Positions 639-62,544 of a DNA stretch of 64,000 nt are shown in pieces. Position 1 is the first letter of the stretch. Each line of letters begins with the position of its first letter. A program made the translations under genes and the position numbers. The notes below the pieces were generated by a model, which had not been told where the DNA came from, made no database searches, and saw only the letters and a list, made by a program, of their open reading frames with translations. Source of the stretch: Opitutales bacterium (lineage in GTDB: Bacteria > Verrucomicrobiota > Verrucomicrobiia > Opitutales > UBA2987); contig CBDDEL010000012.1 of the NCBI GenBank assembly GCA_965226885.1, positions 96,001 through 160,000 of the forward strand. Direction: 5' to 3'.

Positions 639-1736
639 TTGAGCAGCATACATAAAATCCTCGTCGTTGACGATCAGCCCGTAAACGTAAAGTTGCTCCA
701 GTATGCGCTGGAGCGGAACGGGATGCTGGTCTGGTCCGCCTACAGCGGCCAGCAATGCCTCGATCAAGTTAATAATGAAATGCCGGACCTGATCCTGCTG
801 GACATTATGATGCCCGAAATGGACGGATTTGAGGTTTGTAAAATCCTCAAAGAAGATGAGGCTACCCAGGCAATCCCCATAATTTTTTTAACCGCGAAAA
901 CTAGCAAAGAGGGAAAATTGAAAGGGTTGGATGCGGGAGCCGTCGATTACATCACCAAGCCGATCGACCTGGAGGAAACGCTTGCCCGGATAAAGACCCA
1001 GCTCCGTTTTCAGCAGATCAACCGCGAAAACATCGAATTGCAGAAGCGCCTGGCAGACTCACGGCAAACCGCTGCCATTGGGGCAATCGCCCAGGGCATA
1101 TCGCACAATCTAAACAACCTTCTCGGTGTGGTGGTAGGCTATCTGGACCTATTGAAAACCATCAAGGATAACCCGGCAGCGGTCGAGCGTTGCTACAATC
1201 AGATTGGCCAGGCCATTCAAAGAATGGTCAATATTGTCCGCAGACTGGGCAAAATCGCCAATAAAGAACATTTTGCTTTGCAACCTCTGTCGCTGCAGCG
1301 ACTCCTCGACAGCAGCATTCGTCGATTCGAGGCCGAGAACAATACATCCGATTCCATAGTGGTTATCAACCCGCTGGAGAATATTCAGGTGCCGGCCAAT
1401 GCTGAAATCTTTGAAAGCATTCTGGGCAACTTGATGATGAACGCTCTGGAAAGTTACCCAGAAGGAGAAGAAAACCGCAAGGTAACCATTAAAACGGAAC
1501 TAGTCGATTCCGATTCCAAACAGAGCATCCTGATAAAAGTTTTTGACGAAGGCACCGGAATCAGTCCTGAAGTTAAAGATCACATTTTTGAACCCTTTAT
1601 CAGCGGAAAAACCTCCGTCGGCCGTGGAATGGGATTGACCATTGCCCGCAACGGAATACGCAACCTCGGCGGCGAACTTATCCACAAACCGAGAACCCGT
1701 GGCGGAACTTGCGCCGAGCTGTTGCATCCCCTTTAG
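639..1736 (+). CDS. Hybrid response regulator / sensor histidine kinase
   Basis: N-terminal REC (ILVVDD, LLDIMMP), H-box SHNLNNLL, N-box NLMMNALES, G boxes DEGTGI and GRGMGL. Confidence 0.93.
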   Translation: MSSIHKILVVDDQPVNVKLLQYALERNGMLVWSAYSGQQCLDQVNNEMPDLILLDIMMPEMDGFEVCKILKEDEATQAIPIIFLTAKTSKEGKLKGLDAGAVDYITKPIDLEETLARIKTQLRFQQINRENIELQKRLADSRQTAAIGAIAQGISHNLNNLLGVVVGYLDLLKTIKDNPAAVERCYNQIGQAIQRMVNIVRRLGKIANKEHFALQPLSLQRLLDSSIRRFEAENNTSDSIVVINPLENIQVPANAEIFESILGNLMMNALESYPEGEENRKVTIKTELVDSDSKQSILIKVFDEGTGISPEVKDHIFEPFISGKTSVGRGMGLTIARNGIRNLGGELIHKPRTRGGTCAELLHPL

Positions 1737-1894
1737 GTCCCGTGATCGGACCACCAAAAATACGGCCACTGCCAGTGAGAGTCTTTTCGGAGAAATTACC
1801 GAATTAGCTCATGACGAAATACGGTCGCCCATTCAGTTGCCCCACCACCTTGGAAATGGCGATACCCCGTTCCCTTTTCTTTTCAGGATTGCCA

Positions 1895-2053
1895 GTATCA
1901 AACTATATTGTTCTTGATTTCCGGGGATTCAAGGGAAATGGCATTTGAGTATTAAACTTTATTGTTCTTAGGCATTTCACGTTTCACTTTACACTTGTTG
2001 ATCATCAATGATTTATGAATCCGTCCGGTATCAAACTTTATTGTTCGAGTACA
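1895..2053 (-). mobile_element. Tn7-like transposon end with left-end architecture
   Basis: Minus strand starts TGTACTC-GAACAATAAAG; three spaced 19-bp TnsB-site-like repeats gtat(c/t)aaact(a/t)tattgttc at 1895-1913, 1949-1967 and 2028-2046. Confidence 0.8.
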
Positions 2054-2133
2054 TGTAGACGGACAATAAAGTTGTATCCTAGACAATAAACTTGGAAACT
2101 GACCACTCCGCGCCGGACAATAAAGTCGACTCC
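2054..2133 (+). mobile_element. Tn7-like transposon end with right-end architecture
   Basis: TGTAGAC-GGACAATAAAG resembles the Tn7 right end TGTGGGC-GGACAATAAAG; closely packed repeats at 2061-2079, 2081-2099 and 2115-2133. Confidence 0.8.
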
Positions 2134-2172
2134 TGTCCCTGCCAGGTAGAGGAGTGAACGTAACTTGTTGAA

Positions 2173-2580
2173 TCATAAAGGATTCCGATGATATCCCAGG
2201 ATACATTCAACCTCTGAGGAATCCCCGACTCGGTAGTCAACGGCCAAGTTTGCAACCGCCGTTTGCCATTCCATCCCGAAGACAAGGGCCATCGCCGCAT
2301 CGCGGAGAGATTCCTGCGATCCGATGTCTAGTCGCTTCTAATACTTCCTGCTGCGCAGCGTCGGTTCCAAACAAGCCAGCAATACGATATCGAAATCGAA
2401 CGATTTCGCCACGATGACACCCAACCGACGAACCGCCTCGGGCTGCGGATTTCTCAATTTGACGTTTTTTGGAAGTTCTCCTTTCGGTGCATCCGGAACG
2501 TAATCTGGCTGAAGCTGAAATGACACCTTCTCCACGTCATCGATGGTAATCTCTGGGTGAATCGGGCGCAATTTACGCCC
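2173..2580 (-). pseudogene. Hypothetical gene 3' fragment
   Basis: Frame continues past an internal TAG at 2338-2340 to TGA near 2173; 5' end cut at the IS1380 boundary. Confidence 0.4.
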
Positions 2581-2583
2581 TAG

Positions 2584-4149
2584 CCCGGAAATTTCATAAA
2601 AAAAGTATCGCTGATATGCTTATCTGCTGATATACAGCAGGATAGATTAAACATTAAAGCAATATCAGCGATGACAAAAAGTAAACAATTAGAACTACAG
2701 TTGACAAGGGTAAAAGGCCGCCGTGTGCGGGTTGATTTTAAGGGCGGTGAGGTTACTTCGGATGCCGGGCTGCTTTTGATCCGGGAAGTGGATCGGCGGT
2801 TGGGCTTGACCGAGCAAGCGGCCCGGCAATTAGTAGACAAACGGCAGAAGGGCAAAGTGCGCCATGAGATGCTGGCCATGATCCGGCAGCGCGTTTACGG
2901 GCTGGTGGCGGGCTATGAGGATTTGAACGACTTTGACACCCTGCGCCGCGATCCTTTGTTGCAAACGGTAACGGGGCGCACTGAAGCGTTGGCCAGCGCG
3001 CCGACTTTGTGTCGTTTTGAAAACGGGCAGGATCGGCGGGCAGCCTTTGCCCTGAACGAGTTGCTGGTCGAACAGTTCATGGGATCCTTTGCCGAGGAAC
3101 CCGAAGAGATCATCCTGGACTTTGACGCCACCGACAATCCGGTGCACGGGCTCCAGGAGGGACGTTTTTTCCACGGTTATTATGATCATTACTGTTTTGT
3201 GCGCTGTATGTTTTTTGCGGCGATCAGCTTCTGGTGGCCTACCTGCGGCCCAGCAAGATCGATGCGAGCAAGCATGCCGGGGCCATCCTCAAATTGCTGG
3301 TTAAACGGATTCGCCAAAGCTGGCCCCATACGCGGATTATTTGGCGTGCCGACAGCGGATTCTGCCGGGATCGGATTCTCTCGTGGTGCGAGCGCAACGA
3401 GGTTTATTTTATAGTGGGAACGGCCCGCCATGCACGCTTGCAGCAAGCGGCCCGGCAGTTGCAGGAGCAAGCCAAACAATGGTTCGAGGGTAGCGGCAAA
3501 AAGCAACGGCTGTTTCAGCACTTCGAGTATGGGGCAAAATCGTGGCGGCGCCAACGCCTTATCATCCACAAAGCCGAACACACCGCACAGGGGTCCAACC
3601 CGCGCTTCGTGGTGACGAACCTGCAGGGCGATCCCCAAGAGCTTTACGACAAAGTATACTGTGGCCGCGGTGAGATGGAGAACCGGATCAAGGAACAGAT
3701 GCAATTGTTCAGCGAACGCACCAGCGCGCATAAATGGTGGGCCAACCAGTGGCGATTGCTCTTGTCGGGGCTGGCCTACACCTTGATGGAAGCCTTGCGC
3801 CGGTTCGCATTAAAAGGGACGAAGTGGGCGCGGCTCCAATGCCACAGTCTACGGCTAAAATTAATCAAGATCGGAGCGGTAATCGTGCGCAACACCCGAA
3901 CGATTCACTTTCATCTAAGTGAAAGTTATCCATGGGCCAGTCTTTTCAACCATGCGGCCCGCCGGTTGGTGCCAACCTAAAGGGCGCATTGGCGCTGCCC
4001 CCGGCGCTACCGAACCAATGGGGGAAAGGGGGAAGTGTCTCTACACCCTGAAAAACACCTCAAAATCAAGACGATCCGCCCAAAATACAAAGAAATCCAT
4101 CTCCAATAGCAATAACGAGCCAAACTTTACCCTTCATGAAATATCCGGG
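2584..4149 (+). mobile_element. IS1380-family element (type A, divergent isoform)
   Basis: Inverted repeats cccggaaatttcata / ttcatgaaatatccggg; flanks ctag and gtag do not form a perfect target duplication. Confidence 0.93.
2671..3980 (+). pseudogene. IS1380 transposase, frameshifted
   Basis: ORFs 2671-3414 and 3234-3980 together match the intact copies; one base is missing near 3200 (ttttgtgcgctg versus ttttctgccgcta). Confidence 0.85.
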
Positions 4150-4280
4150 GTAGTTCTCTGGCTGCCTCGCTGATCTCGGACTCATCTCTGAACTCGGCTT
4201 CCACTTCTGCCCACTCCAATCGCACCATAACCTTTTCCGTCAGCTGGCGGTCGCCTCTGTTTACCAACATAAGTAAGGAT

Positions 4281-4388
4281 GTGCTGACCCTCAGTTTCCT
4301 GGGTGTTTGCGGAGTTCTCGTCAGCGACCTGCTGCTCATTATGCTGGACCCGCGCATTCGCTATGATGAAGGCGCAAGTGGAAAATAA
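4281..4388 (+). pseudogene. C-terminal remnant of an OppB/DppB-like ABC permease
   Basis: VLTLSFLGVCGVLVSDLLLIMLDPRIRYD carries the typical LDPRIR tail; 5' part absent. Confidence 0.75.
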
Positions 4389-4436
4389 AACATTTTCGCT
4401 GGTCTTTACGACAGGAAAAACTACTTTGATTTTTAT

Positions 4437-5342
4437 ATGAATTCTCAACTGCGAGTCGGAATCATCGGCCTGGACACCTCCCACGTGGCAGGGCTAGCCA
4501 ATTTCCTAAACGATCCTCAGCACAAGGATTTTATCCCCGGAGCCCGCATTACGACGGGATACCCCGGAGGTTCACCGGATTTCGAGAAGAGCGCATCGCG
4601 GGTCGAGGGTTTTACCCGGAAACTGAAGGACGAGTTCGGGGTGGCCTTGGTTGAATCTCCCGAGGAGGTGGCCGAACAATGCGATGTTATACTCCTCACC
4701 TCGGTGGACGGGCGCGTTCATCTCGACCAGTTCTCCCGCATCGCCCCTTTTGGCAAACCGACTTTCATTGATAAACCATTTGCGGTAAGCTCTGAGCACG
4801 CTCGTCAAATCGCGGAACTGGCTGAAAAAAACCAGGTCCCCTTGATGAGTTCATCTCCCTTACGTTATGCCGAGGCTTTGACTGTGGCTCTCGCCGGGCG
4901 CTCGGGCGAAAACATAACGGGCGCTGATTTTACCGGCCCCATGCCAATAGAACCCACCCAACCCGGCTTTTTCTGGTATGGCGTACACGCGGCGGAAGCT
5001 CTTTTTGAAGTCATGGGGCCCGGCTGCGCCGAGGTCCGCGTAACAACTGTGGAAAACCATGACCTTGCCGTCGGCCACTGGCGGGATGGGCGCATAGGAA
5101 CCATCCGGGGATTCCGCGGTTCCGGTTATTACTTTGGCGGCGTCCTCCACACGGATAAAGAAATGATATTCCTCGATCTCGATTCCGGCGAGAAAACAAA
5201 ACACGTTCATCTGACGAAATCCATAATCGAATTTTTCCGCACCGGGATAAGCCCCATCGCTGTGGCCGAAACAGTTGAAGTCATCCGGTTTCTGGAAGCC
5301 GCCAACGAGAGCCGCTTGACCGGTAATACCGTGCCGCTCTAA
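4437..5342 (+). CDS. Gfo/Idh/MocA-family oxidoreductase
   Basis: Rossmann start RVGIIGLDTSH, FIDKP motif, WYGVH motif. Confidence 0.9.
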   Translation: MNSQLRVGIIGLDTSHVAGLANFLNDPQHKDFIPGARITTGYPGGSPDFEKSASRVEGFTRKLKDEFGVALVESPEEVAEQCDVILLTSVDGRVHLDQFSRIAPFGKPTFIDKPFAVSSEHARQIAELAEKNQVPLMSSSPLRYAEALTVALAGRSGENITGADFTGPMPIEPTQPGFFWYGVHAAEALFEVMGPGCAEVRVTTVENHDLAVGHWRDGRIGTIRGFRGSGYYFGGVLHTDKEMIFLDLDSGEKTKHVHLTKSIIEFFRTGISPIAVAETVEVIRFLEAANESRLTGNTVPL

Positions 5343-5345
5343 TTT

Positions 5346-6242
5346 ATGATAAATCCTCGGAAGATCGTTGATACCCATCAGCATGTGAACTGGCACCAGC
5401 GTAATGTGTCCGGGTCGATTCGCGATATGGATGAGCACGGGGTCAGCTATTCCTGGCTGCTGACCTGGCTCACGGAACCGGACGACCCGGTGCCGTACTC
5501 GGGTGGCGCGCTCAATCCCGTCAATGTCCGCCTGGACGGGTCGCAAGAGGGCATTACCCTGCGCGATATTGTGGAGGCCAAGGAGAAGCATCCTCAACGA
5601 TATGTGGTGGGCTATTGCCCCAACCCCCGTTGGCGGCTGGCGGCCATTTACCTGCGCAACGCCCACCACATGCATGGGGCTCAAATGTGCGGTGAGTGGA
5701 AGTATCGAATGCTCTTCGACGATCCGCGCTGCCTGGAGATTTTTCATGTCGCGGGCGAGTTGAAAATGCCGGTCGTGCTGCACCTGGACGTGCCCTATTT
5801 GCTACAAAATGGCCGACCCGAGTACCAGCCCGATTGGTACGGCGGAACCGTAGAAAACCTGGAGCGCGCCCTTCAGGCCTGTCCGGACACCATATTCATC
5901 GGGCATGCTCCGGGGTTTTGGAGAGAGATCAGCGCGGATGCGGCCACCGATGGGAAACCCTATCCGGATACACCCATTCCCGCCCCCGGAGAAATCTACC
6001 GGCTTTTCGATACTTATGAGAATTTGTTTGCGGATTTATCGGCGGGCTCCGGCCGCATCGCCCTGCAGCGCGACCCCCAACATGCGGTTTCCTTTTTGCA
6101 AAAATATTCCCATCGCCTGCTCTTCGGGCGAGACCAATACGAGCAGAAACTACACCAGTTTCTGCAAACGCTTCCCCTTGATGAAGCAACCGTTAACCGG
6201 ATTTATTACCAGAATGCGGAGAGGCTGATTCCGGCCCCTTAG
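5346..6242 (+). CDS. Amidohydrolase family protein
   Basis: DTHQH metal motif, GEWK, VVLH, IGH and LFGRD motifs. Confidence 0.88.
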   Translation: MINPRKIVDTHQHVNWHQRNVSGSIRDMDEHGVSYSWLLTWLTEPDDPVPYSGGALNPVNVRLDGSQEGITLRDIVEAKEKHPQRYVVGYCPNPRWRLAAIYLRNAHHMHGAQMCGEWKYRMLFDDPRCLEIFHVAGELKMPVVLHLDVPYLLQNGRPEYQPDWYGGTVENLERALQACPDTIFIGHAPGFWREISADAATDGKPYPDTPIPAPGEIYRLFDTYENLFADLSAGSGRIALQRDPQHAVSFLQKYSHRLLFGRDQYEQKLHQFLQTLPLDEATVNRIYYQNAERLIPAP

Positions 6243-6244
6243 AA

Positions 6245-7174
6245 TCATTGATGCGTTGGGCGGGATGCTGCTTCAACCGCCACCACAAGAGCCCCCAGGT
6301 CCTGGATGCGATCACCCAGTTTTGACGGCCGCACGGTGCACAACCTGGCCACCTCGGGTTGGACTTCCCGCAAATACCGCTGGTGCACGAGATTCAGCCA
6401 ATCGCTTCCAAAATAAGAGGCCAGGCTGCCCAAAACGATGATATGCGGACAGAGCAAGTCCGCCAGAAGTGCGCATACGTCGCCCAACGCCTCGGCATTG
6501 AGGCGAATAATCTCCAGGGCATCAGCGTCGCCTTTCGCCGCCAGCACACTGATTTCAGGACCCGAAGGTGGGTTCATTGTCCAACGGCCAGGAAATTTCC
6601 AGGCGGCCAGCAATGGCAAGCCCGTCCCGGAACAATAAGCCTCTACCGTGCCTTCCTTGCCATAAGCGACGGGTCCATGCTGGCGAATGCGCCAGTGTCC
6701 GAGATCGCAGGGGTAGCCACCGGCCCCGCGATGAATCCTGCCATCGAGCACCAGGCCGGCCCCGCAACCCGTGCCGCAAGTCAGGTAAACCAGATGGCGG
6801 ACCTCGCCGTCCGTCCCCCACCGGAATTCCGCCAAGGCGCAGGCCGCCGCGTCATGCTCGACCGCGACCGGCAGCCGCAGTTGCTCTTCCAGCCGTTCCT
6901 TCAAAGGAAGTGCATCCCAACCCGGCAAATGGGGAGGCGACTGAATGATGCCACGATCCGCGTCCAACGGCCCTCCAATCGAAACGCCAACCGCTTTCAC
7001 ACCGGGAAAGATTTTTAGCAATTCCCGCGATCTTTCCCGAATATCCGCCAACATGGCTTCGGGGCCCCGCTCGGCATTTGAGGCCCAGGCTCTGCGCTCG
7101 ATGATTTCGCCCTCAACCGCGCCGATCACGGCGACAGATTTCGTTCCCCCAATATCGAGTCCAAGAAGATGCAT
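6245..7174 (-). CDS. ROK-family sugar kinase
   Basis: LGLDIGGT, EHDAAACALAE, TCGTGCGAG and GHW...GTVEAYCSG motifs. Confidence 0.9.
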   Translation of the reverse strand: MHLLGLDIGGTKSVAVIGAVEGEIIERRAWASNAERGPEAMLADIRERSRELLKIFPGVKAVGVSIGGPLDADRGIIQSPPHLPGWDALPLKERLEEQLRLPVAVEHDAAACALAEFRWGTDGEVRHLVYLTCGTGCGAGLVLDGRIHRGAGGYPCDLGHWRIRQHGPVAYGKEGTVEAYCSGTGLPLLAAWKFPGRWTMNPPSGPEISVLAAKGDADALEIIRLNAEALGDVCALLADLLCPHIIVLGSLASYFGSDWLNLVHQRYLREVQPEVARLCTVRPSKLGDRIQDLGALVVAVEAASRPTHQ

Positions 7175-7214
7175 CACCCTTTCCAGCAAGCCAGCATGAA
7201 AATTTCCGCTCTAG

Positions 7215-8787
7215 CCCGGATATTTCATGAAGGGTAAAGTTTGGCTCGTTATTGCTATTGGAGATGGAGATGGATTTCTTTGTATTTTGAGCAGATCGTC
7301 TTGATTTTTAGGTGTTTTTCAGGGTGTAGAGACACTGCCCCCTTTCCCCCATTGGTTCGGTAGTGCCGGGGGCAGCACCAATGCACCCTTTAGGTTGGCA
7401 CCAATCGGCGGGCCGCATGGTTGAAAAGACTGGCCCAAGGATAACTCTCACTTAGGTGAAAGTGAATCGTTCGGGTGTTGCGCACGATGACCGCTCCGAT
7501 CTTGATTAATTTGAGCCGCAGGGTGTGGCATTGGGCCCGCGCCCACTTCGTCCCTTTTAAGGCTAACCGGCGCATGGCTTCCATCAAGGTGTAGGCCAGC
7601 GCCGACAAGAGCAATCGCCACTGATTGGCCCACCATTGATGGGCGCTGGTGCGCTCGCTGAACAATTGCATCTGTTCCTTGATTCGGTTCTCCATTTCAC
7701 CGCGGCCACAGTATACCTTGTCGTAAAGCTCCTGGGGATCGCCCGGCAGGTTCGTCACCACGAAGCGCGGGTTGGACCCCTGTGCGGTGTGTTCGGCTTT
7801 ATGGATGACCAACCGCAGCCATCGCCACGAATCGGCAGCATAGACGAAGTCCTGGAATAACCGTTGTTTTTTACCCCTTAGTTCGAACCATTCTTTGGCC
7901 TGCTTTTGCAACTGCTGGGCGTCTTGCTGCAAGCGTGCATTGCGAGCCATCCCCACGATGTAACTAACTTCGTTGCGGTCGCACCAAGAGAGTATCCGGT
8001 CTCGACAAAATCCACTGTCGGCGCGCCAAATAATCCGCGTACGGGGCCAGCTTTGGCGAATCCGTTTAACCAGCAATTTGAGGATGGCCCCGGCATGCTT
8101 GCTGGCATCGATCTTGCTCGGCCGCAGGTAGGCCACCAGCAGCTGATCACCGCAAAAAACATATAGCGGCAGAAAACAGTGATGATCATAATAACCGTGG
8201 AAAAAACGTCCCTCCTGGAGCCCGTGCACCGGATTGTCGGTGGCGTCAAAGTCCAGGATGATCTCTTCGGGTTCCTCGGCAAAGGAGCCCATGAACTGTT
8301 CGACCAACAGCTCGTTTACCGCAAAGGCCGCCCGCCGATCCTGCCCGTTTTCAAAACGACACAAAGTCGGCGCGCTGGCCAACGTTTCAATGCGCCCCGT
8401 TACCGTTTGCAACAATGGATCGTGGCGCAGGGTATCAAAGTCGTTCAAATCCTCATAGCCCGCCACCAGCCCGTAAACGCGCTGCCGCAGCATCCCCAAT
8501 ACCTCATGGCGTACTTTGCCCTTCTGCCGTTTGTCCACTAACTGTCGGGCCGCTCGTTCGGTCAAGCCCAACTGCCGATCCACTTCCCGGATCAAAAGCA
8601 GTCCGGCATCCGAAGTAACCTCTCCGCCCTTGAAATCAACCCGCACACGGCGGCCTTTTACCCTTGTCAACTGTAGCTTTAATTGTTTACCTTTTGTCAT
8701 CGCTGATATTGCTTTAATTATTGATCTATCCTGCTGTATATCAGCAGTTAAGCATATCAACGATACTTTTTTTACGAAATATCCGGG
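7215..8787 (-). mobile_element. IS1380-family element (type A)
   Basis: Terminal inverted repeats cccggatatttc; CTAG on both flanks (7211-7214 and 8788-8791). Confidence 0.96.
7390..8700 (-). CDS. IS1380 transposase
   Basis: TSDAGLLL, GYEDLND, LDFDATD, RADSGF and RGEMENRIKE motifs. Confidence 0.95.
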   Translation of the reverse strand: MTKGKQLKLQLTRVKGRRVRVDFKGGEVTSDAGLLLIREVDRQLGLTERAARQLVDKRQKGKVRHEVLGMLRQRVYGLVAGYEDLNDFDTLRHDPLLQTVTGRIETLASAPTLCRFENGQDRRAAFAVNELLVEQFMGSFAEEPEEIILDFDATDNPVHGLQEGRFFHGYYDHHCFLPLYVFCGDQLLVAYLRPSKIDASKHAGAILKLLVKRIRQSWPRTRIIWRADSGFCRDRILSWCDRNEVSYIVGMARNARLQQDAQQLQKQAKEWFELRGKKQRLFQDFVYAADSWRWLRLVIHKAEHTAQGSNPRFVVTNLPGDPQELYDKVYCGRGEMENRIKEQMQLFSERTSAHQWWANQWRLLLSALAYTLMEAMRRLALKGTKWARAQCHTLRLKLIKIGAVIVRNTRTIHFHLSESYPWASLFNHAARRLVPT

Positions 8788-8952
8788 CTAGGCTGTTGCT
8801 TTTTCATTACTAAATGCATTGAACTTAAATCCAACAAGCTGTAGTATTCAATTTACGCAAATTGATTGGTTGGAAACGACAAGATAGAAATTGAGCTTGG
8901 GTTAGTTACTCAGGCATGGTCAAAGATTAATATTTTAGTTGAGAAAACAACA

Positions 8953-29393: not shown

Positions 29394-30311
29394 TCAGGCG
29401 GCTTGTTTTGGTAAAGGGTTTTGTTTTCTCGTTGCCCCCCATGGGGGGCAAATATTTTCCTCGAATTGGACTGGGCTTTGGTAACTCAGAGAGGAATGTT
29501 TGCGATATCGGTTGTAGAAGATTTCCACGTATTCGAAGACAGTTGATCGCAGTTCGCGCTCGTCGGCAAAGTGGCGGCCTCGAATCGTGCTGGTCTTGAA
29601 GCGGCCGTAGAACGATTCCATGGCCGCGTTGTCGTAGCAGTTGCCTTGGGCGCTCATGCTCGGCTTCATGCCTAGTTCAGAGACCAGCCTCTGATAGTCG
29701 TCGCTGGCGTAGGGGCTGCCCCGATCGCTGTGATGAATAATCCCGGTGCGCAGTGTGCCGCGGGTCATGGCCGCGGCTTTGAGGGCCTTGCCAACCAGCT
29801 TCGCGTCGTTGTGGTTGGAAACGCTCCAGCCCAGCAGGCGTCGGCTGAACAGGTCCATCACCGTGGCCAAGTACATCCAACCGGCCAGGGTCCGTAGGTA
29901 GGTCGTGTCCGCCACCCAGACCTCGTCGATATGGGTCGGCTGGCCATGCTTTTTAAGCACATTGGGGCTGTAACCATAGGGATGGTTACTGTTGGTTTTT
30001 AATGGCTTAAAGCGTTTACTCTGGGTGCTTTTGATTCCCATTTCACGCATCAGATGCAGAGCCCGGTCACGGCCGCAATCGATGCCCTCATCATCCTTCA
30101 GATGGCGGTGCATTGGCCGATGCCCATAGCGGCCCTTGGCCTCTTTGTGTACCTTCAGGATCGCCCCCTTGATTCCCTCGTCCTCGATCCGCCGGGCCGA
30201 GGGCGCTCGGTGCCTCCAGCAGTAATAGCCACTGCGACAAATCCCCATCGCCGAGCATATTTCCTCGATCTTGAAGCGCCCCTCGTTGTCTTTGACAAAC
30301 TGGTACTTCAT
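29394..30311 (-). CDS. IS3 transposase OrfB (DDE integrase core)
   Basis: WVADTTY, MDLFSRR, HHSDRGS and DNAAMESF motifs. Confidence 0.92.
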   Translation of the reverse strand: MKYQFVKDNEGRFKIEEICSAMGICRSGYYCWRHRAPSARRIEDEGIKGAILKVHKEAKGRYGHRPMHRHLKDDEGIDCGRDRALHLMREMGIKSTQSKRFKPLKTNSNHPYGYSPNVLKKHGQPTHIDEVWVADTTYLRTLAGWMYLATVMDLFSRRLLGWSVSNHNDAKLVGKALKAAAMTRGTLRTGIIHHSDRGSPYASDDYQRLVSELGMKPSMSAQGNCYDNAAMESFYGRFKTSTIRGRHFADERELRSTVFEYVEIFYNRYRKHSSLSYQSPVQFEENICPPWGATRKQNPLPKQAA

Positions 30312-30619
30312 TGTTCGTCCTTGGCAAAGTAGCCCACCGTTTTTTTTAGTATCTGGTTGATCCGCTCCGAGCGGCGCAGCTCTTTGCGAAGACGATCTAT
30401 CTCGGCCGCCATCTCCTTCGGACTGCTCTGTCGCTTTGAGGTGGCTTCGCCCTGCTGATCGTCCAGATAGAGCCTCTTCCACCTATACAATTGGTTGGTG
30501 TTGACCCCAAGTTTGGTCGATACCTCGGTGGCGCTCAGACCATCGAGTATCATCAGTTGAACTGCCTCATTTTTGAACTCTATACTAAAGCGTCTTCTTC
30601 CCATGCTTCGATTCTCCAT
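30308..30619 (-). CDS. IS3 transposase OrfA
   Basis: RRRFSIEFKNEAV HTH-type start; ATGA overlap with orfB. Confidence 0.9.
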   Translation of the reverse strand: MENRSMGRRRFSIEFKNEAVQLMILDGLSATEVSTKLGVNTNQLYRWKRLYLDDQQGEATSKRQSSPKEMAAEIDRLRKELRRSERINQILKKTVGYFAKDEQ

Positions 30620-44305: not shown

Positions 44306-45872
44306 CCCGGATATTTCGTAAAAAAAGTATCGTTGATATGCTTAACTGCTGATATACAGCAGGATAGATCAATAATTAAAGCAATATCAGCGATGACAAA
44401 AGGTAAACAATTAAAGCTACAGTTGACAAGGGTAAAAGGCCGCCGTGTGCGGGTTGATTTCAAGGGCGGAGAGGTTACTTCGGATGCCGGACTGCTTTTG
44501 ATCCGGGAAGTGGATCGGCAGTTGGGCTTGACCGAACGAGCGGCCCGACAGTTAGTGGACAAACGGCAGAAGGGCAAAGTACGCCATGAGGTCTTGGGGA
44601 TGCTGCGGCAGCGCGTTTACGGGCTGGTGGCGGGCTATGAGGATTTGAACGACTTTGATACCCTGCGCCACGATCCATTGTTGCAAACGGTAACGGGGCG
44701 CATTGAAACGTTGGCCAGCGCGCCGACTTTGTGTCGTTTTGAAAACGGGCAGGATCGGCGGGCGGCCTTTGCGGTAAACGAGCTGTTGGTCGAACAGTTC
44801 ATGGGCTCCTTTGCCGAGGAACCCGAAGAGATCATCCTGGACTTTGACGCCACCGACAATCCGGTGCACGGGCTCCAGGAGGGACGTTTTTTCCACGGTT
44901 ATTATGATCATTACTGTTTTCTGCCGCTATATGTTTTTTGCGGTGATCAGCTGCTGGTGGCCTACCTGCGGCCGAGCAAGATCGATGCCAGCAAGCATGC
45001 CGGGGCCATCCTCAAATTGCTGGTTAAACGGATTCGCCAAAGCTGGCCCCGTACGCGGATTATTTGGCGCGCCGACAGTGGATTTTGTCGAGACCGGATA
45101 CTCTCTTGGTGCGACCGCAACGAAGTTAGTTACATCGTGGGGATGGCTCGCAATGCACGCTTGCAGCAAGACGCCCAGCAGTTGCAAAAGCAGGCCAAAG
45201 AATGGTTCGAACTAAGGGGTAAAAAACAACGGTTATTCCAGGACTTCGTCTATGCTGCCGATTCGTGGCGATGGCTGCGGTTGGTCATCCATAAAGCCGA
45301 ACACACCGCACAGGGGTCCAACCCGCGCTTCGTGGTGACGAACCTGCCGGGCGATCCCCAGGAGCTTTACGACAAGGTATACTGTGGCCGCGGTGAAATG
45401 GAGAACCGAATCAAGGAACAGATGCAATTGTTCAGCGAGCGCACCAGCGCCCATCAATGGTGGGCCAATCAGTGGCGATTGCTCTTGTCGGCGCTGGCCT
45501 ACACCTTGATGGAAGCCATGCGCCGGTTAGCCTTAAAAGGGACGAAGTGGCCGCGGGCCCAATGCCACACCCTGCGGCTCAAATTAATCAAGATCGGAGC
45601 GGTCATCGTGCGCAACACCCGAACGATTCACTTTCACCTAAGTGAGAGTTATCCTTGGGCCAGTCTTTTCAACCATGCGCCCCGCCGATTGGTGCCAACC
45701 TAAAGGGTGCATTGGTGCTGCCCCCGGCACTACCGAACCAATGGGGGAAAGGGGGCAGTGTCTCTACACCCTGAAAAACACCTAAAAATCAAGACGATCT
45801 GCTCAAAATACAAAGAAATCCATCTCCAATAGCAATAACGAGCCAAACTTTACCCTTCATGAAATATCCGGG
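44306..45872 (+). mobile_element. IS1380-family element (type A) nested in the IS5 leader
   Basis: Inverted repeats cccggatatttc; target duplication ctaa on both sides. Confidence 0.96.
44393..45703 (+). CDS. IS1380 transposase
   Basis: Near-identical to 7390-8700. Confidence 0.94.
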   Translation: MTKGKQLKLQLTRVKGRRVRVDFKGGEVTSDAGLLLIREVDRQLGLTERAARQLVDKRQKGKVRHEVLGMLRQRVYGLVAGYEDLNDFDTLRHDPLLQTVTGRIETLASAPTLCRFENGQDRRAAFAVNELLVEQFMGSFAEEPEEIILDFDATDNPVHGLQEGRFFHGYYDHYCFLPLYVFCGDQLLVAYLRPSKIDASKHAGAILKLLVKRIRQSWPRTRIIWRADSGFCRDRILSWCDRNEVSYIVGMARNARLQQDAQQLQKQAKEWFELRGKKQRLFQDFVYAADSWRWLRLVIHKAEHTAQGSNPRFVVTNLPGDPQELYDKVYCGRGEMENRIKEQMQLFSERTSAHQWWANQWRLLLSALAYTLMEAMRRLALKGTKWPRAQCHTLRLKLIKIGAVIVRNTRTIHFHLSESYPWASLFNHAPRRLVPT

Positions 45873-46052: not shown

Positions 46053-47386
46053 TGAAGTGGACGGGGTTGTTTGGACAATTTTGACGTGGGATTAAGGTGG
46101 AAATCGTGTTCATATTATTTTTTAAAAATATATTTTGTCCTTAGCCAAAGACGGGCACGCAGGTGCCCGCAAGCTGTATTGGCGGGGAGGTTGGTTTTGC
46201 TCCGATTGCATGGACTTCGGCCGGGGTCCGGTAGCCCAGGGCTTGGTGGGGGCGCAGGTGGTTGTAGAAGTCCAGGTAGCGGGCTATCCCTTCGCTGGCT
46301 TCCTTTGCCGTGGCGTATTCGCGCAGGTAAATGTCTTCATACTTGAGGGTTCTCCAAAAGCGTTCAACAAATATGTTGTCCAGGTAGCGGCCACGCCCGT
46401 CCATGCTGATGCGCACCCCGGCTTGCCCCAGCACCGAGGTGAACTCGCTGCCGGTAAACTGGCTGCCTTGATCGGTGTTGAAGATTTGAGGTTGGGCCCG
46501 CCTCAGAGCTTCCTCCAGGGCGAGCACACAGAAGCGGCTCTCCAGGGTGTTGGAAAGCTGCCAGCTCAACACGTAGCGGCTGAACCAGTCCAACACCACG
46601 GTCAAGAAAAGGAATCCTCGGCTCAGCCGCAGGTAAGTGATGTCGCTGCACCATACCTGGTCGGGCCGCTCGACCGCCAAACCCCGCAGCAGATAAGGGA
46701 AAATGCGGTGCTGCCGGTGCCCCTGGCTCAAGTTTCGACGCGGATAAATAGCCTCCAGGCCCATTTGGCGCATGAGCCGCTGGATGCGGCCTCGTCCCAC
46801 TGCATGGCCCTCTCGACGCAGCCACTGGGTCATCCGGCGAGAACCAAAAAACGGATATTGGGTGTAGAGCTCATCCATGCGATGCATGTAGAGAACGGTT
46901 CTGCTCGCACTGGGCACGGGCCCGATAGTAATAGCTGCCGCGGGCCAGCCCCAGCAACTGACATTGCCTGCCGATACTGATTTTTCCTTGAAGTGGTTGC
47001 ACCATCTTGCGCCTCTCACCAACCGAATTGTTCAGACTTTTTTTTTAGCCAATCGCATTCTACTTTCAGCTTTCCAATCTCCTGGTAAAGGTGATCTTTT
47101 TCCGTCTCGTTGTCCTTGCTGAGAGTCTGCCGCTGGCGCGAAAACAGCTCCGTTGCTCCCTGCAAAAGCTGCTTCTTCCATTGGGTCACCTGGTTGGGAT
47201 GCACCTCAAAACGACCGGCGATCTCGTTGATGGTATGAGCGCCCCTGATGGCTTCCAGGGCCACTCGGGCTTTAAACTCAGCACTGTATTGTCTTCTCTT
47301 TCGTGATTTAATAACATTCATAGGTTAGCGGATTTAGTGGTTCAAGACCACCTTATTCCACTGTCCAGTTTTCCCCGTCCATTTCA
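46053..47386 (-). mobile_element. IS3-family element (type B)
   Basis: Inverted repeats tgaagtggacgggg..tggaca / tgtcca..ccccgtccatttca; target duplication atc; orfA 47016-47321 with A9G slippery site; orfB 46141-47022 (WCSDITY, NTDQGSQ, DNIFVERFW) with an extra frameshift near 46897. Confidence 0.94.
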
Positions 47387-47445: not shown

Positions 47446-49580
47446 GGTAGTGTATAAAAAAAGAATGTTATTTTGTATTTTTAGCTGTACAAATAGCGTT
47501 AGGCAATTTATTCTTAGTGCATGGTTACTAAAATTATTAATTGTCGGCACTGTGGAAGTGAAAATATCATTAAATTTGGCAAGACGCCCAACCATAAACA
47601 GCGCTACCGCTGCCATGATTGTGGTAAACAAAGCCGCGAAAACCCCACAGTGAAATACACCGAAGAGCAAAAAGAAATGATCCTTCGAGTCTATCAGGAA
47701 CGCAGCAGTCTACGCGGTTTACAGCGCGCCTTCGGGGTGAGTCCCAACACCGTTTTGAGTTGGTTAAAAAAAACGACAATCGCTGCGACCGCTCAAAAGC
47801 ACGATTCTTGCGGCCCGCCGCCATGATGTCATTGAACTGGACGAACTGTGGTCTTTTGTGGGGCGCAAGAGCGATGCCCAATGGGTTTGGATCGCTCTTT
47901 GCCGACGCACCCGTCAAATCCTCTCCTATGCCATTGGGCCTCGGGATTGGTATCGTTGCCGGGAACTTTACGAGCGTCTTGCCACGGGCCTACAAAAGAA
48001 GTGCCACCTACAGCGACTTTTGGAGCACTTATGATGAAGTCTTTCCTCATAACCGATCTGACGTGTACTGGATTTGTTGGACACGGGATTCTCTTATATT
48101 CATTGTTTATTGATTAGTGTGTCAGGCGGCTTGTTTTGGTAAAGGGTTTTGTTTTCTCGTTGCCCCCCAGGGGGGGCAAATATTTTCCCTCGAATTGGAC
48201 TGGGCTTTGGTAACTCAGAGAGGAATGTTTGCGATATCGGTTGTAGAAGATTTCCACGTATTCGAAGACAGTTGATCGCAGTTCGCGCTCGTCGGCAAAG
48301 TGGCGGCCTCGAATCGTGCTGGTCTTGAAGCGGCCGTAGAACGATTCCATGGCCGCGTTGTCGTAGCAGTTGCCTTGGGCGCTCATGCTCGGCTTCATGC
48401 CTAGTTCAGAGACCAGCCTCTGATAGTCGTCGCTGGCGTAGGGGCTGCCCCGATCGCTGTGATGAATAATCCCGGTGCGCAGTGTGCCGCGGGTCATGGC
48501 CGCGGCTTTGAGGGCCTTGCCAACCAGCTTCGCGTCGTTGTGGTTGGAAACGCTCCAGCCCAGCAGGCGTCGGCTGAACAGGTCCATCACCGTGGCCAAG
48601 TACATCCAACCGGCCAGGGTCCGTAGGTAGGTCGTGTCCGCCACCCAGACCTCGTCGATATGGGTCGGCTGGCCATGCTTTTTAAGCACATTGGGGCTGT
48701 AACCATAGGGATGGTTACTGTTGGTTTTTAATGGCTTAAAGCGTTTACTCTGGGTGCTTTTGATTCCCATTTCACGCATCAGACGCAGAGCCCGGTCACG
48801 GCCGCAATCGATGCCCTCATCATCCTTCAGATGGCGGTGCATTGGCCGATGCCCATAGCGGCCCTTGGCCTCTTTGTGTACCTTCAGGATCGCCCCCTTG
48901 ATTCCCTCGTCCTCGATCCGCCGGGCCGAGGGCGCTCGGTGCCTCCAGCAGTAATAGCCACTGCGACAAATCCCCATCGCCGAGCATATTTCCTCGATCT
49001 TGAAGCGCCCCTCGTTGTCTTTGACAAACTGGTACTTCATTGTTCGTCCTTGGCAAAGTAGCCCACCGTTTTTTTTAGTATCTGGTTGATCCGCTCCGAG
49101 CGGCGCAGCTCTTTGCGAAGACGATCTATCTCGGCCGCCATCTCCTTCGGACTGCTCTGTCGCTTTGAGGTGGCTTCGCCCTGCTGATCGTCCAGATAGA
49201 GCCTCTTCCACCTATACAATTGGTTGGTGTTGACCCCAAGTTTGGTCGATACCTCGGTGGCGCTCAGACCATCGAGTATCATCAGTTGAACTGCCTCATT
49301 TTTGAACTCTATACTAAAGCGTCTTCTTCCCATGCTTCGATTCTCCATTTAGGAGAATCTCGTGTCCACTTTTTCCAGTGCACATCAATCCGTGGGAAAA
49401 GAAACCGGTGAAACGGCCCATGTGGAACGATGGAACAATACCCTGCGCCAACGACTGGGTCGTTTCACACGCAAAACCCTCTCCTTTTCCAAGCTTAAGA
49501 GTATGCATGAAACCTGTCTGAGACTTTTCATTCATCAATATAATCAAGAATTAGCCACCATTCCTACTTAATACACTACC
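47446..49580 (+). mobile_element. IS1-family element interrupted by IS3 type A
   Basis: Ends ggtagtgtat / atacactacc; 8-bp target duplication gataaata; InsA zinc finger 47521-47826. Confidence 0.94.
48059..49387 (-). mobile_element. IS3-family element (type A) nested in IS1 insB
   Basis: Same inverted repeats as 29331-30817; target duplication atc; orfA 49037-49348, orfB 48114-49040. Confidence 0.96.
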
Positions 49581-58021: not shown

Positions 58022-58460
58022 ATATTAAATATATCTGGCAGGATAAATGCAACCATATTCACCTCTTTGAAAGTTTCAATTCTATCTTGAAGCCATTGTG
58101 TTTCTTATTCAAGCCCATATTTTCCATTTCATCATAAGAAAATTTGTTTGAAATAATCGCTATGTGTTTAATAATAAGTTATTTAAGTATACTTATAGCG
58201 AAAGCGAACAAATTCTTAAAATCCAATGGGTGACGCAAAAAAGAGCAGTTTTCGGGTTCAATTCAACCGTCGAATCAAGTTGGAGTTCCACGGTGCGAAG
58301 GTTACCAGTGATGCAGGATTGTTACTCTACCGGGAACTTGATGAGGCTTTCGGGCTGACTGCGATAGGAAGCGAAAATGTCGTGGATGTAAACGCCGGGG
58401 AAAAACCGGTACGGTAAAGAGGGCGCTTTAAAACCGGTACGCTTATCCTAGAAAGGAGGA

Positions 58461-59968
58461 GTGTATCGAGATATGAAGCAATGGACAAGAGTGCGGCACA
58501 AAGTGCTGCGGGACAAGCAGAGCAAGCGCTCTGTAATGCGAGAAGAGGGACTGCACTGGGAGACCCTGGGAAAGATGCTGGCCTATTCCCAGCCGCCGGG
58601 ATACCGGCGCAAGAAGAGGCGAGAGCGCAAGATCGATCCGTATGTGGGCTGGATCGAGGAGGTGCTCAAAGCGGACCGGAACGTGCCCAAGAAGCAGCGC
58701 CATACGGCCAAACGGATCTACCAGCGTTTGGGTCGGGAGAAGGGCTACCAAGGGGGCTACACGGCGGTCAAGGAGGTGGTGGCCGAGCTGCGAGCGAGGC
58801 GGCGGGAAGTGTTCGTGCCGCTGGAGCACCGCCCCGGGGAGGGACAGGTGGACTTCGGTCATGCCCTGGTGAAGGAGGCGGGGCAATTGCGTAGGCGGCC
58901 ATTTTTTGCCATGAGCCTGCCCTACAGCGATGCCTTTTTCGTGCAGGTGTTCGAACGGGAGTGCACGGAGAGCTTCTGGGAGGGGCACCTGCGAGCTTTT
59001 GAGTTTTTCGGGGCGGTGCCCCGGCGCATCAGCTACGACAACTCGAAGGTGGCGGTGGGTAAGATTATCGGTTCGCGTGAACGCAAGCTGACCGACGGGT
59101 TTCTGCAGCTACAGAGCCATTACCTGTTCGAGGAACACTTCTGTCTGCCCGCCCGGCCCAACGCGAAGGGCGTGGTCGAGGGGATCGTGCGTTATGCCCG
59201 GGCCAACTTCCTGGTACCGGTACCGCAGGTTCGGGACCTGGAGGAACTCAACGCAAAGCTGTTGGAGGCATGTGAGCGGGACATGGAGCGTAAATTACGC
59301 GGGAAAAGGGCGGTGAAAAAGGAACTGCTGGCCGAGGAGCGCGCCGTCATGCTGCCGTTGCCGCCCATACCCTTTGAAGCGAGCCGCAAACGCTCGACCT
59401 GCGTCAGCAGCCTCTCGCTGGTGCGCTTCGAGTGCAACGACTATTCGGTGCCGGTGCGCTGCGCCCACCATCCGGTGGTGGTGGAAGGGTCCTGTCGGCA
59501 GGTGGTGATCTTCTGTGGGGGCCAAGAGGTGGCCCGGCACCGCCGCATTTGGGATAAAGAGCAAGTCTCTTTCGAGCCGGTGCACTACCTGGCTTTGCTG
59601 GAGAAAAAACCGGGCGCTTTGGACTTCGCCCGCCCACTCTCGGGCTGGCAGTTGCCGCAGTGCCTGCAGGTCCTCAGACGCCGGCTCGAAAGCCAATGCG
59701 GGGGCGAAGGCACCCGGGAGTATATCCGGGTGCTGCGGCTGTTGGAGAAACACCCCATGGCGGCCTTGCAGCAGGCCGTCGTCTCGGCCCTGCGGGTGGG
59801 GGGACTGACTCGTGAGGCCATCGCCCAGTATCTCTATCCTCAGGAAGACTACGGGAGCAGAACCTTCCGGCTGGGGACGGCCATCCACACCTGCGTCACG
59901 TCCGTGTGGCCGCCCCTGACCTCGGTGCCTACAGCGAACTGCTCAAGATTCCAGGAGGGGCTTTATGA
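58461..59968 (+). CDS. istA: IS21 transposase IstA (frameshift near 59875)
   Basis: QVDFG, YDN and KGVVE motifs; the alternative frame after ctggggac reads DGHPHLRHVRVAAPDLGAYSELL and ends at a TGA overlapping the istB ATG. Confidence 0.88.
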
Positions 59969-60732
59969 AGGAAGAAAAAAACCAGCTGCTGTTACACCAT
60001 CACCTCAAGAAACTGAAGTTGCCCACCATCCTGCGCGAATGGCCGGCGGTGGCCGCGGCTTGTTCCCGGGACCGGCTCGATTACGCCGCCTTTTTGTTGC
60101 ATCTGGTCGAACGGGAGCTCATTGAACGCGAACAGCGGGCCGCCCAGCGGCGGATCAAAAACGCCCGTTTCCCCGTGCTCAAGACCCTCGAGAGCTTCGC
60201 CTTTGAAGCGCAGCCCTCGATCAACGAAGCGCTCATCCGAGAGCTCATGCGCGGGGAGTATGTCGACCAGCGCGAAAACGTGCTGCTCCTCGGTAACGCC
60301 GGTACCGGTAAAACGCACCTGGCCACCGCCCTGGGCTTTGCCGCCTGTGCCCAGGGCCGGCGGATCCGTTTCTTCGGGGTCACCGCCCTGGTTACCCATA
60401 TGCTCGAGCAACGCGACAACCACGACCTGCAGCGCTTCATGAAGCAACTCGAAAGGCTCGACCTACTCATCCTCGACGAACTCGGTTACGTCCCTTTTTC
60501 CAAGACCGGTTCCGAACTGCTCTTCGACGTGGTCAGCCGCGCTTACGAGCGCACCAGTCTCATCGTCACCACCAACCTGCCCTTTGAGAACTGGATCGAA
60601 GTGCTCGGTTCCGAACGGCTCACCGGAGCTCTGCTGGACCGACTCACCCATCGGGTGCATATCCTCGAAGCCAACGGGCAAAGCTACCGCTTGCGCGATG
60701 CTCGACGCCGTCGCCGTGGCACAAAACAATAA
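59965..60732 (+). CDS. istB: IS21 helper ATPase IstB
   Basis: GNAGTGKTHLA, LILDELGY, TTNL and ALLDRLTHR motifs. Confidence 0.96.
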   Translation: MKEEKNQLLLHHHLKKLKLPTILREWPAVAAACSRDRLDYAAFLLHLVERELIEREQRAAQRRIKNARFPVLKTLESFAFEAQPSINEALIRELMRGEYVDQRENVLLLGNAGTGKTHLATALGFAACAQGRRIRFFGVTALVTHMLEQRDNHDLQRFMKQLERLDLLILDELGYVPFSKTGSELLFDVVSRAYERTSLIVTTNLPFENWIEVLGSERLTGALLDRLTHRVHILEANGQSYRLRDARRRRRGTKQ

Positions 60733-60980
60733 ACGCCTTGGGCCCGGCTCGTCGGCCTCCGGCCTCCTCACCGACCCCAAGCCAATCCCCAAAACCAACT
60801 CCCAAACCCTAAACCTTGACGTACCTGCAATTACTAACCTAAACCTTATTCCAAGCGTACCGGTTTTACCCCGACCCCCGTACCGGTTTCATCCCGGCGT
60901 TTACACGTGGAGGAGCGCACGGGCAAAAATATCCAGCATGGTATAGCGGCTCTGCTTCGGCAGTCTGTCTTCAGTCGCCT

Positions 60981-61180: not shown

Positions 61181-62528
61181 CGATGCGGAGCGACTGCGCT
61201 TTGATCCGGTCATGAGGCAGATTGTCGGGGGTCGTGCCGATTGGCAACCGGCGGCTTCGACCAGTGAAATGAGCCGCTTTGAAACACAGATGTTAACCAA
61301 GCCTGCGAATCTGAGCGCACTGATGGACATGAGTGGTCAATGGATCGACCAGGTGAATAGGCGAGTGGGGATGAAAAAATTGATTCTCGATATGGATAGT
61401 TCGGAGAGCCCTACTTACGGGAAGCAGGAAGGCTCGGCCTTCAACGGTCATTTCGGCTGCACCTGTTACCATCCCCTGTTCTGCTTCAACCAGTTTGGTG
61501 ATCTGGAACGGGCCAACCTGCGTAAAGGCAATGTGCACAGTGCCGACGATTGGTTGTCGGTGCTCCAACCGGTCGTTGCCCGCTATCGTGACTGTCCCCT
61601 GAAACGATTTTTCCGAGGTGACGCAGCCTTCGCCAATCCGGACCTCTACGGTTACCTTGAGCAAGAGAACTTCTCCTATGCCATTCGGCTGCAGAGCAAC
61701 ACGATTTTACAAAAACATATCGCCCCTTTACTCACTCGGCCAGTGGGGCGACCCTCGCGGGCACCCAAGGTGTTTTATACGAGTTTTTTGTATCAAGCCG
61801 CCAGTTGGCAGAGACCTCGCCGGGTGGTGGCCAAGGTCGAGTGGCAGGCCGGAGAGTTATTTGCGCGGGTCGGTTTCATCGTGACGAATCTGAACTGGCC
61901 ACCCAAGAAGGTAGTGAAATTTTACAACCACCGGGGCACCGCAGAGCAGTGGATCAAAGAGGGCAAACATGCCATCCACTGGACCCGCTTGTCCTGCCAT
62001 GACTTTGAGGACAACGCCGTTCGGCTTCAGCTCTTCGGCTTAGCCTACAATCTGGGTAACTTCATGCGCCGGTTGATTCTTCCCGGCAAGGTGAAGCACT
62101 GGATGCTGAGCTCTCTACGGGAGAAACTCATCAAAATCGGAGCAAAGGTGATCCACCATGCCAAGTATATCACTTTCCAGATGGCTGAGGTGGCCATCCC
62201 AAGAGAAATGTTTCGAACCATGCTGAAGCGAGTAGAGCGACTGCGACTCGCACCTGATACGGGGTGAGTAAGAAGATTTTTCGATACAAAAGGAACCAGT
62301 GCTGTGGAAACCTCCAACAGAAGGAAAGACCTTTCCCATGTTTGACCGAACAAAAGGAAAATCAGCAATAATTGTTAAATACTACCGATTTGATCATCAA
62401 ATAACGAAGGAATGGATTGCCAAATCACAATGAAAGTAGATAATTGGATCGAAATATTAGAAAGTAGTTATTTTCAACGATTACGAATGTTCATATGGGA
62501 AATCTCGGCTATAACCATTACAATTATG

Positions 62529-62544
62529 GGTAGTGTATTAAGTA
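62529..62544 (-). mobile_element. IS1 right-end stub cut by IS5 insertion
   Basis: ggtagtgtattaagta is the reverse complement of the IS1 right end at 53064-53079. Confidence 0.8.

Follow-up and report, generated by a model that had tools for sequence, protein, structure and literature searches.

Transposon ends that stand back to back, 0 to a few bp apart, are a feature of the tandem dimers of IS21 and IS30 and of the circles of the IS3 family, in which the junction joins the two ends of one element, is a transposition intermediate and often makes a promoter. TnsB and TnsC of Tn7 are relatives of IS21 and Mu proteins. Tn7 with TnsA is excised in linear form, and no circle intermediate is known for it. 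Tandem Tn7-like elements at attTn7 have reportedly been described in older surveys. According to the covered parts of the published accounts, target immunity should suppress further insertion where an element is already resident (PMC11014353, PMC11406308). The Tn6022-type islands of Acinetobacter baumannii nevertheless comprise insertions within or next to resident elements and, like the locus described here, represent natural genomes with Tn7-like insertions proximal to a resident copy despite immunity that is measurable in the laboratory; the covered parts of that paper describe no 0-bp junction (PMC11014353). According to the same parts, these islands differ in their target, comM, and in their use of TniQ and TnsF, and the events are tied to a TnsC'-'TnsF fusion allele, to which nothing comparable was seen in the genome studied here (PMC11014353). 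Among telomeric Tn7-like elements, different ones that compete for the same niche accumulate as tandem arrays, with residents sometimes disrupted; their target is the telomere, as opposed to glmS here, and the available portion of the source gives no junction spacing. A full-text literature search, which is not proof of absence, returned no description of a 0-bp junction between a left and a right Tn7 end in the portions of the sources covered. Tandem Tn7-like insertion is already known, and the locus presented below is real and well explained as a probable case of it.

The window, a 64-kb stretch of DNA, corresponds to positions 96001-160000 of contig C12 in genome G000 (5.48 Mb in 17 contigs). 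Its host, an uncultured member of the Opitutales (Verrucomicrobiota), is a first difference from Tn7. Within window positions 1879-2133, a repeat search identified six related sites of 21-22 nt arranged round a common core, all at the positions claimed in an earlier sequence-only reading, which had described six motifs round 2053/2054, three of them spaced on the minus strand and three packed on the plus strand. The left-type sites (1892-1913, 1946-1967 and 2025-2046, minus strand) are direct copies of a 22-nt unit with start-to-start distances of 54 and 79, and the right-type sites (2060-2080, 2080-2100 and 2114-2134, plus strand) are direct copies of a 21-nt unit with start-to-start distances of 20 and 34. 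The 64 kb contain four exact copies of the core, ACAATAAAG, against an expectation of 0.34; all lie inside 1957-2125, and four were reached in none of 100 shuffles. The remaining two sites are each one mismatch off the core (ACAATATAG and ACAATAAAC), as had been read from the letters.

In the left and right site sets alike, a TGT stands nine bases ahead of the first core, an offset that we, like the sequence-only reading, take to be Tn7's own. The plus strand across 2053/2054 reads ...GAGTACA|TGTAGAC..., with one TGT at 2053 on the minus strand and the other at 2054 on the plus strand. The left-type end (1879-2053) abuts the right-type end (from 2054) with 0 bp between them, which bears out the zero spacer, ACA|TGT, proposed earlier; the junction (2053..2054) lies inside the palindrome TACATGTA (2050-2057). 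A 31-nt inverted repeat (2023-2053 and 2054-2084) is formed by the innermost pair of sites, with 0 nt between its arms, and homology between copies ends exactly at the TGT terminal bases. As in Tn7, both ends in the window have 5'-TGT...ACA-3' termini, and their repeats of about 20 nt, spaced in the left end and packed contiguously in the right, are predicted TnsB-binding sites. The evidence supports their identification as true Tn7-type ends, a left-type and a right-type one, that belong to two different elements standing back to back. Between left-end sites 1 and 2 lies a palindrome, GTTGATCATCAA (window 1994-2006), that is retained in every copy aligned. It is nearly invariant across five left-end copies, the surroundings being merely 74-88% identical, and could be a candidate binding site for a host or transposon factor.

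Contigs from four runs (X19, X21, X22 and X23) were compared with the junction, all of them assembled contigs and no raw reads. A 2435-nt Logan contig from run X19, possibly the source sample of the genome, matches window 1400-2191 throughout, without a difference or a gap, and a 211-nt contig from run X23, which bears another organism label, covers 1891-2101 gap-free with 16 differences. Both span the junction, which argues against the misassembly that had been named as a danger to the original observation. The contig from run X22 has the same ends, with GTAGTTTTGT after 2053; it represents a paralogue with a 10-bp spacer, a different junction. That from run X21 (2024-2191) was excluded from the count, as it has just 30 nt left of the junction.

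The second danger named, that the motifs might recur through the genome as the operators of a transcription factor, was addressed by a genome-wide scan with a relaxed core, in which the motif clusters had no operator-like spread. Clusters with end architecture were Tn7-type ends only, on C4, C12, C16 and C17, and the other relaxed-core clusters listed were chance ACAATATTGT palindromes or unrelated pairs. Site clusters of end architecture thus occupy five places in G000: the window, C4:22081-22317, C17:873216-873452, C16:675305-675379 and a degenerate end relic at C12:398444-398490. This last relic, extending over C12:398444-398675, has the terminus CGTAAACAA in place of TGT..., two adjacent sites and a left-end-like inner sequence with a REP; it is solo, with unrelated DNA on its flanks.

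Both halves of the window structure are truncated. Reading leftwards from its terminal TGT at 2053, the left-type end relic with its three spaced sites (1879-2053, minus strand) is 81-82% identical in BLAST, and 83% in a global alignment, to the left ends at C4:22175 and C17:873310. By global alignment it is 88% identical to the left end on contig C430 of G003, one of the four congeners sampled (G001, G002, G003 and G004). Homology to C4 and C17 stops after 175 bp, at 1879. That to contig C62 of G002 continues through an inner left-end relic (1742-1878, minus strand), window 1742-2053 being 77% identical to the inner left-end region of G002:C62, and stops at 1742; the left piece therefore measures 175-312 bp. 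A response-regulator/histidine-kinase gene ends at 1736, and the match to its orthologue on G002:C100, which has other downstream genes than those in the window, stops at window 1740. Window 1743-1801 is a copy of a 60-bp dispersed REP/MITE-like repeat found at more than 40 other loci in G000 and also in G003, G004 and G032; one copy lies within the inner left-end region in G000:C12 and G002:C62 alike.

The right-type end relic starts with the terminal TGT at 2054, carries three sites and is split by an IS into a first part (2054-2583, plus strand) and a second part (4151-4300, plus strand). It is 93-94% identical to the right ends at C16:675296, C4:22164 and C17:873299 and 96% identical to that on G003:C116, and it has one 20-bp site fewer than the sister right ends on C16, C4 and C17, which carry four. 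The second part is 98% identical to C16:675843-675992, C4:21617-21468 and C17:872752-872603. The IS between them (2581-4153, plus strand, 1.57 kb, with about 3 bp duplicated) is 99% identical to many copies in G000, and its DDE_Tnp_1_4 transposase (Pfam PF13701 on 3234-3977) is split into two ORFs. A conserved 220-aa ORF, read on the minus strand, has its 3' part within the first part of the relic; every other copy ceases to match at 4300, inside the 5' part of this ORF, which leaves a right piece of about 680 bp. Next to it is a novel joint (4301-4350, plus strand), an unrelated fragment with the 3' end of an ABC-permease-like reading frame, and chromosomal genes (a 307-aa ORF and ROK) follow from 4355. 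Window 4355-7174 is 88-89% identical to G004:C16, whose upstream neighbour differs.

The scar at 1742-4300 is thus flanked by two novel joints, and the synteny of the window flanks in G002 and G004 revealed no relative with an 'empty' version of the joint. In a family scan, 0 of the 67 ORFs in the window matched a tns gene, which agrees with the earlier statement that the 64 kb contain none. The genes expected beside the right end of a Tn7-like element (tnsA, tnsB, tnsC and a selector) are absent in the window copy and present on C4, C17 and, in broken form, C16. Considering that right-end homology stops at 4300 and that no ORF matched, the window holds end relics and no element, and in being merely two truncated ends this copy differs from Tn7. 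The earlier suggestion that the elements are relics therefore stands; the accompanying one, that they extend outside the window, does not, as homology on both sides stops at the novel joints. No partner ends for the left or the right half were found on C12 by homology and motif scans. With its ends facing away, no partner ends and no intact tnsB in the genome, the scar cannot move, and the locus is without evident function today.

Outside the window, three tnsABCD copies were found when the genome was scanned for tnsB, tnsC and tniQ homologues, as had been proposed, and all three have a broken tnsB. These sister copies share with Tn7 the order tnsA-tnsB-tnsC-tnsD beside the right end, and the solved Tn7 proteins are the nearest to their TnsB and TnsD. 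On C16, where the right end follows glmS and is itself followed by tnsA, tnsB, tnsC and tnsD, IS copies interrupt tnsA and tnsB, and tnsD is split. The C4 and C17 copies are 99-99.98% identical over about 10 kb and encode a TnsA of 278 aa (PF08722 and PF08721), a TnsC of 525 aa (AAA_22/TniB) and a TnsD of 637 aa (PF15978 plus TniQ) that matches Tn7 TnsD (8glu_X, E 2e-31). Their broken tnsB (C4:16082-18260 and C17:869353-871531) is spread over three frames: a 492-aa ORF matches residues 216-663 of Tn7 TnsB (7pik_A, E 1.8e-83), a separate 203-aa ORF matches residues 17-136, and the stretch between them is in a third frame. Given that PF09299 has only three matches in the genome, of which the one on C16 is interrupted by an IS and those on C4 and C17 are in three frames, no intact tnsB was found in G000. 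The sister elements are close relatives of prototypic Tn7.

The near-identical pair on C4 and C17 (G000:C4:12280-22680 and G000:C17:864082-873815) includes the junction of a left and a right end with 10 bp between them and about 500 bp beyond the left end. The two tnsABCD copies differ solely by IS insertions, and the pair looks like a recent segmental duplication, or else C4 may be a separate replicon. In both copies a truncated AAA-type ORF comes after tnsD; on C4 (11552-12361, minus strand) it lies directly after that gene as a 269-aa AAA/STAND-like ORF, cut by an IS, which could be cargo or a second target selector. A further difference from Tn7 is the conserved 220-aa ORF between the right end and tnsA, located at C4:21363-22025 (plus strand), C16:675435-676097 (minus strand) and C17:872498-873160 (plus strand), with fragments at window 2190-2580 and 4154-4300 (minus strand). 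It reads towards the terminus, matched no Pfam or NCBIfam family and has about 69% DNA identity in G004; its position is unusual for a gene in a Tn7-like element.

Another point of likeness with Tn7 is the position of the right end relative to glmS. The right end is glmS-proximal and starts 23 nt after the glmS stop in G000:C16, 24 nt after it in G003:C116 and 25 nt after it in G004:C4, and in G001 the glmS flank is unoccupied. The glmS of G000 is on C16; the window junction is on C12 and not beside glmS. The genes downstream of glmS in G001 map to three different G000 contigs, which points to strong rearrangement of G000. In the empty-site comparison with G001, the first post-glmS gene was found beside a GTPase gene on C7, with no end relic there, and the distal boundary of the island was not located.

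All three well-preserved left ends of G000 (window, C4 and C17) abut a right end. On C4 and C17, left and right ends are separated by the 10-bp spacer GTAGTTTTGT; the junction on G003:C430 has the 10-bp spacer CTAATTGTAA, and that on G003:C393 the 9-bp spacer CTAATGTAA. The left end on G002:C62 is solo and runs into an IS-like fragment. The exact junction pattern was detected in 2 of the 401 genomes of the order (G000 and G003). A search of metagenome-assembled contigs gave only two contigs of the genus; the 14 metagenomic loci with the 20-nt left terminus represent 8 distinct sequences, of which four abut another Tn7-type end, at 8, about 6-7, 9 and 5 bp, three are solo and one is ambiguous.

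The spacers of the sister junctions are suggestive of attachment-site DNA: CTAATT is also the last 6 nt before the right end at the glmS of G003, and GTAGTT..GT resembles the glmS flank of G004, CTGTAGTTGTT. We take this likeness to be suggestive only, because the strings are short (6 nt) and come without a statistic, the register in G003 is one base off, and G000's own glmS flank (..GGTGCTGG) is unlike the spacer on C4 and C17.

The two halves of the window junction have different nearest relatives, the left half being closest to G003:C430 (88%) and the right half to G003:C116 (96%). The right end that is paired with the nearest left end, on G003:C430, is only 74% identical to the right end in the window. 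Left and right partners have thus been reshuffled between junctions, which indicates that the junctions arose independently, and a single ancestral junction that spread is ruled out on the same grounds. That makes at least four independent left-right junctions in the genus, with spacers of 0, 9, 10 and 10 bp.

We consider it probable that the window junction is the fossil remnant of TnsD-directed insertions made in tandem at attTn7 and dispersed afterwards through IS-driven rearrangement. This reading builds on what was observed directly: the anatomy of the locus, the truncations, the sister copies, the association of sister right ends with glmS and the reshuffled partners. In the tnsA-tnsB-tnsC-tnsD elements of the clade, TnsD would direct insertion to a site 23-25 bp past the end of glmS, oriented so that the right end is the one nearer the gene. 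A second element arriving at an occupied site would land between glmS and the resident, with the newcomer's left end against the resident's right end, so that left would meet right in exactly the orientation observed. Such junctions would have formed several times, independently, in the genus, most of them retaining 9-10 bp of attachment-site DNA and the one in the window retaining 0 bp. From the sister copies we infer that the window junction itself formed at glmS. Its zero spacer may have come about through a 5-bp staggered cut placed on the resident's first 5 bp (TGTAG) or through later deletion of a short spacer. IS insertion, deletion and rearrangement driven by IS or repeats would have cut the elements to about 0.3 kb on the left and 0.7 kb on the right, and rearrangement would also have parted the scar from glmS. 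The right-hand relic would be the older element of the pile-up, which fits its lost 20-bp site, its IS insertion and its truncation.

Several observations weigh against this reading. The window junction is not beside glmS, nearly every left end of G000 is at a junction, the sole solo relic being the degenerate one at C12:398444, and the abutted partners share the core ACAATAAAG, so target immunity, as known from prototypic Tn7, should strongly disfavour tandems (PMC11014353, PMC11406308). If immunity acts as in prototypic Tn7, recurrent tandems of partners with the same core need weak immunity or long evolutionary time, and the recurrence of such junctions suggests that target immunity in this clade is weak or overcome. 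Second insertions at an occupied site appear to recur in the genus, in contrast to Tn7, in which, in the covered parts of the source, immunity suppresses them (PMC11014353).

As to the spacer, 5 bp are left when a second insertion uses the same 5-bp target. Moving the target 5 bp closer to glmS leaves 10 bp, and moving it 5 bp the other way leaves 0 bp, the target then being the resident's TGTAG. The whole set of spacers (0, 5, about 6-7, 8, 9, 9, 10 and 10 bp) is compatible with a loosely positioned cut. It is possible, if on the unlikely side, that the clade routinely inserts 0-10 bp from a resident right end, immunity being weak or leaky, and that the 0-bp junction is a primary product of a cut inside TGTAG. 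The predicted duplication was sought at other copies: TGTAG was present at 0 of 3 other right-end flanks, and GTACA at 0 of 2 other left-end flanks, counts that say little either way because the partner ends are missing. The 5-bp flanks come from single ends only (GCTGG, TTTGT and TTTGT for right ends; GTAGT and GTAGT for left ends) and form no pairs, and no complete element with both ends was found among the copies examined. No microhomology was detected at the would-be spacer deletion. The X19 and X23 versions of the junction differ by 8%, and the 0-bp form can be no younger than this divergence. Two subfamilies with insertion offsets 5 bp apart were considered as an explanation of 0 versus 10 bp and dropped, since the two resident right ends, at 93% identity, are of one type. 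A primary zero spacer would mean that integration can take the very end of a resident element as its target, and the locus would then be a natural record of a Tn7-type transposon targeting the terminus of another copy.

A primary zero spacer would also result if the junction had formed away from glmS by a TnsD-independent insertion next to a resident end or within its last 5 bp, for example through a local hop, a failure of immunity or a selector that recognises the transposon end. We regard such an origin as distinctly improbable. The truncated AAA/STAND-like ORF after tnsD on C4, as a possible second selector or cargo, would suit it, as would the abutment of ends at 0-10 bp in many loci. The distance of the window junction from glmS also points that way, but the present position says little, since the relic is bordered on either side by a novel joint and the genome is heavily rearranged. 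Against this origin, the sister spacers resemble glmS-flank DNA, and neither TGTAG at the three right flanks nor GTACA at the two left flanks was found.

The sequence-only reading had offered two explanations for the zero spacer, and tandem insertion, as set out above, fits the data well. The other, an end-to-end joined (circular) form of one element that was reintegrated or fixed in the chromosome, is very unlikely. Direct joining would be expected to produce the zero spacer and the palindrome TACATGTA, but the two halves have different nearest relatives, the partners vary between junctions, and four sister junctions have spacers of 9-10 bp. Both ends of a circle or tandem dimer should come from one element, and the values for the two halves (88% to G003:C430 versus 96% to G003:C116, with 74% for the pair) speak otherwise. 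The linear excision of Tn7, for which no circle intermediate is known, also speaks against this explanation.

We give equally little credence to a functional 'reactive junction' comparable to the tandem-dimer ends of IS21 and IS30, serving as a transposition substrate or as a junction promoter. The kinship of TnsB and TnsC to IS21 and Mu proteins and the recurrence of abutted ends in the clade would favour it. A search of window 1700-2600 found no sigma-70-like site spanning 2053/2054, the one site detected (expected 1.0) being at 1880-1909. The window copy has no adjacent transposase gene, no intact tnsB was found in G000, and spacer length, at 0 to 10 bp, is not conserved. The window junction thus differs from those of IS21, IS30 and the IS3 family in the separate ancestry of its halves and in having neither a junction promoter nor an adjacent active transposase. 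That the site is misassembled, or is a set of operators for a transcription factor, has nothing in its favour beyond the symmetry of the site and is practically out of the question, with independent contigs spanning the junction and motif clusters confined to TGT-terminated Tn7-type ends beside tnsABCD or glmS.

For annotation, the locus is best described as a dead scar marking a rearrangement breakpoint in a genome overrun by IS copies; mobile element, regulator site and CRISPR-associated transposon would all be wrong labels. With this finding, an uncultured Opitutales lineage is added to the hosts of close relatives of prototypic Tn7, and its wider interest is limited to target immunity and to the precision of TnsD-directed insertion at occupied sites.

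The IS load of G000 was apparent throughout. The genome measures 5.48 Mb, compared with 3.4-4.3 Mb in the four sampled congeners, and the region just left of the window (G000:C12:68000-96000) has an extreme density of nested and truncated IS copies. Within the window, IS-dense parts are found at 2581-4153, 7200-8800, 29394-30479, 44333-45700, 46141-47318, 48114-49208 and 61212-63996. A 2.5-kb IS encoding a 554-aa transposase with a Mu-transposase C-terminal domain (PF22483) lies at window 58381-60910 and at many other loci. Copies of its end motif, CCGTGGC(A/C)CAAAACAATAAAC, number 78 in the genome and account for most of the genome-wide matches to the 8-mer ACAATAAA.
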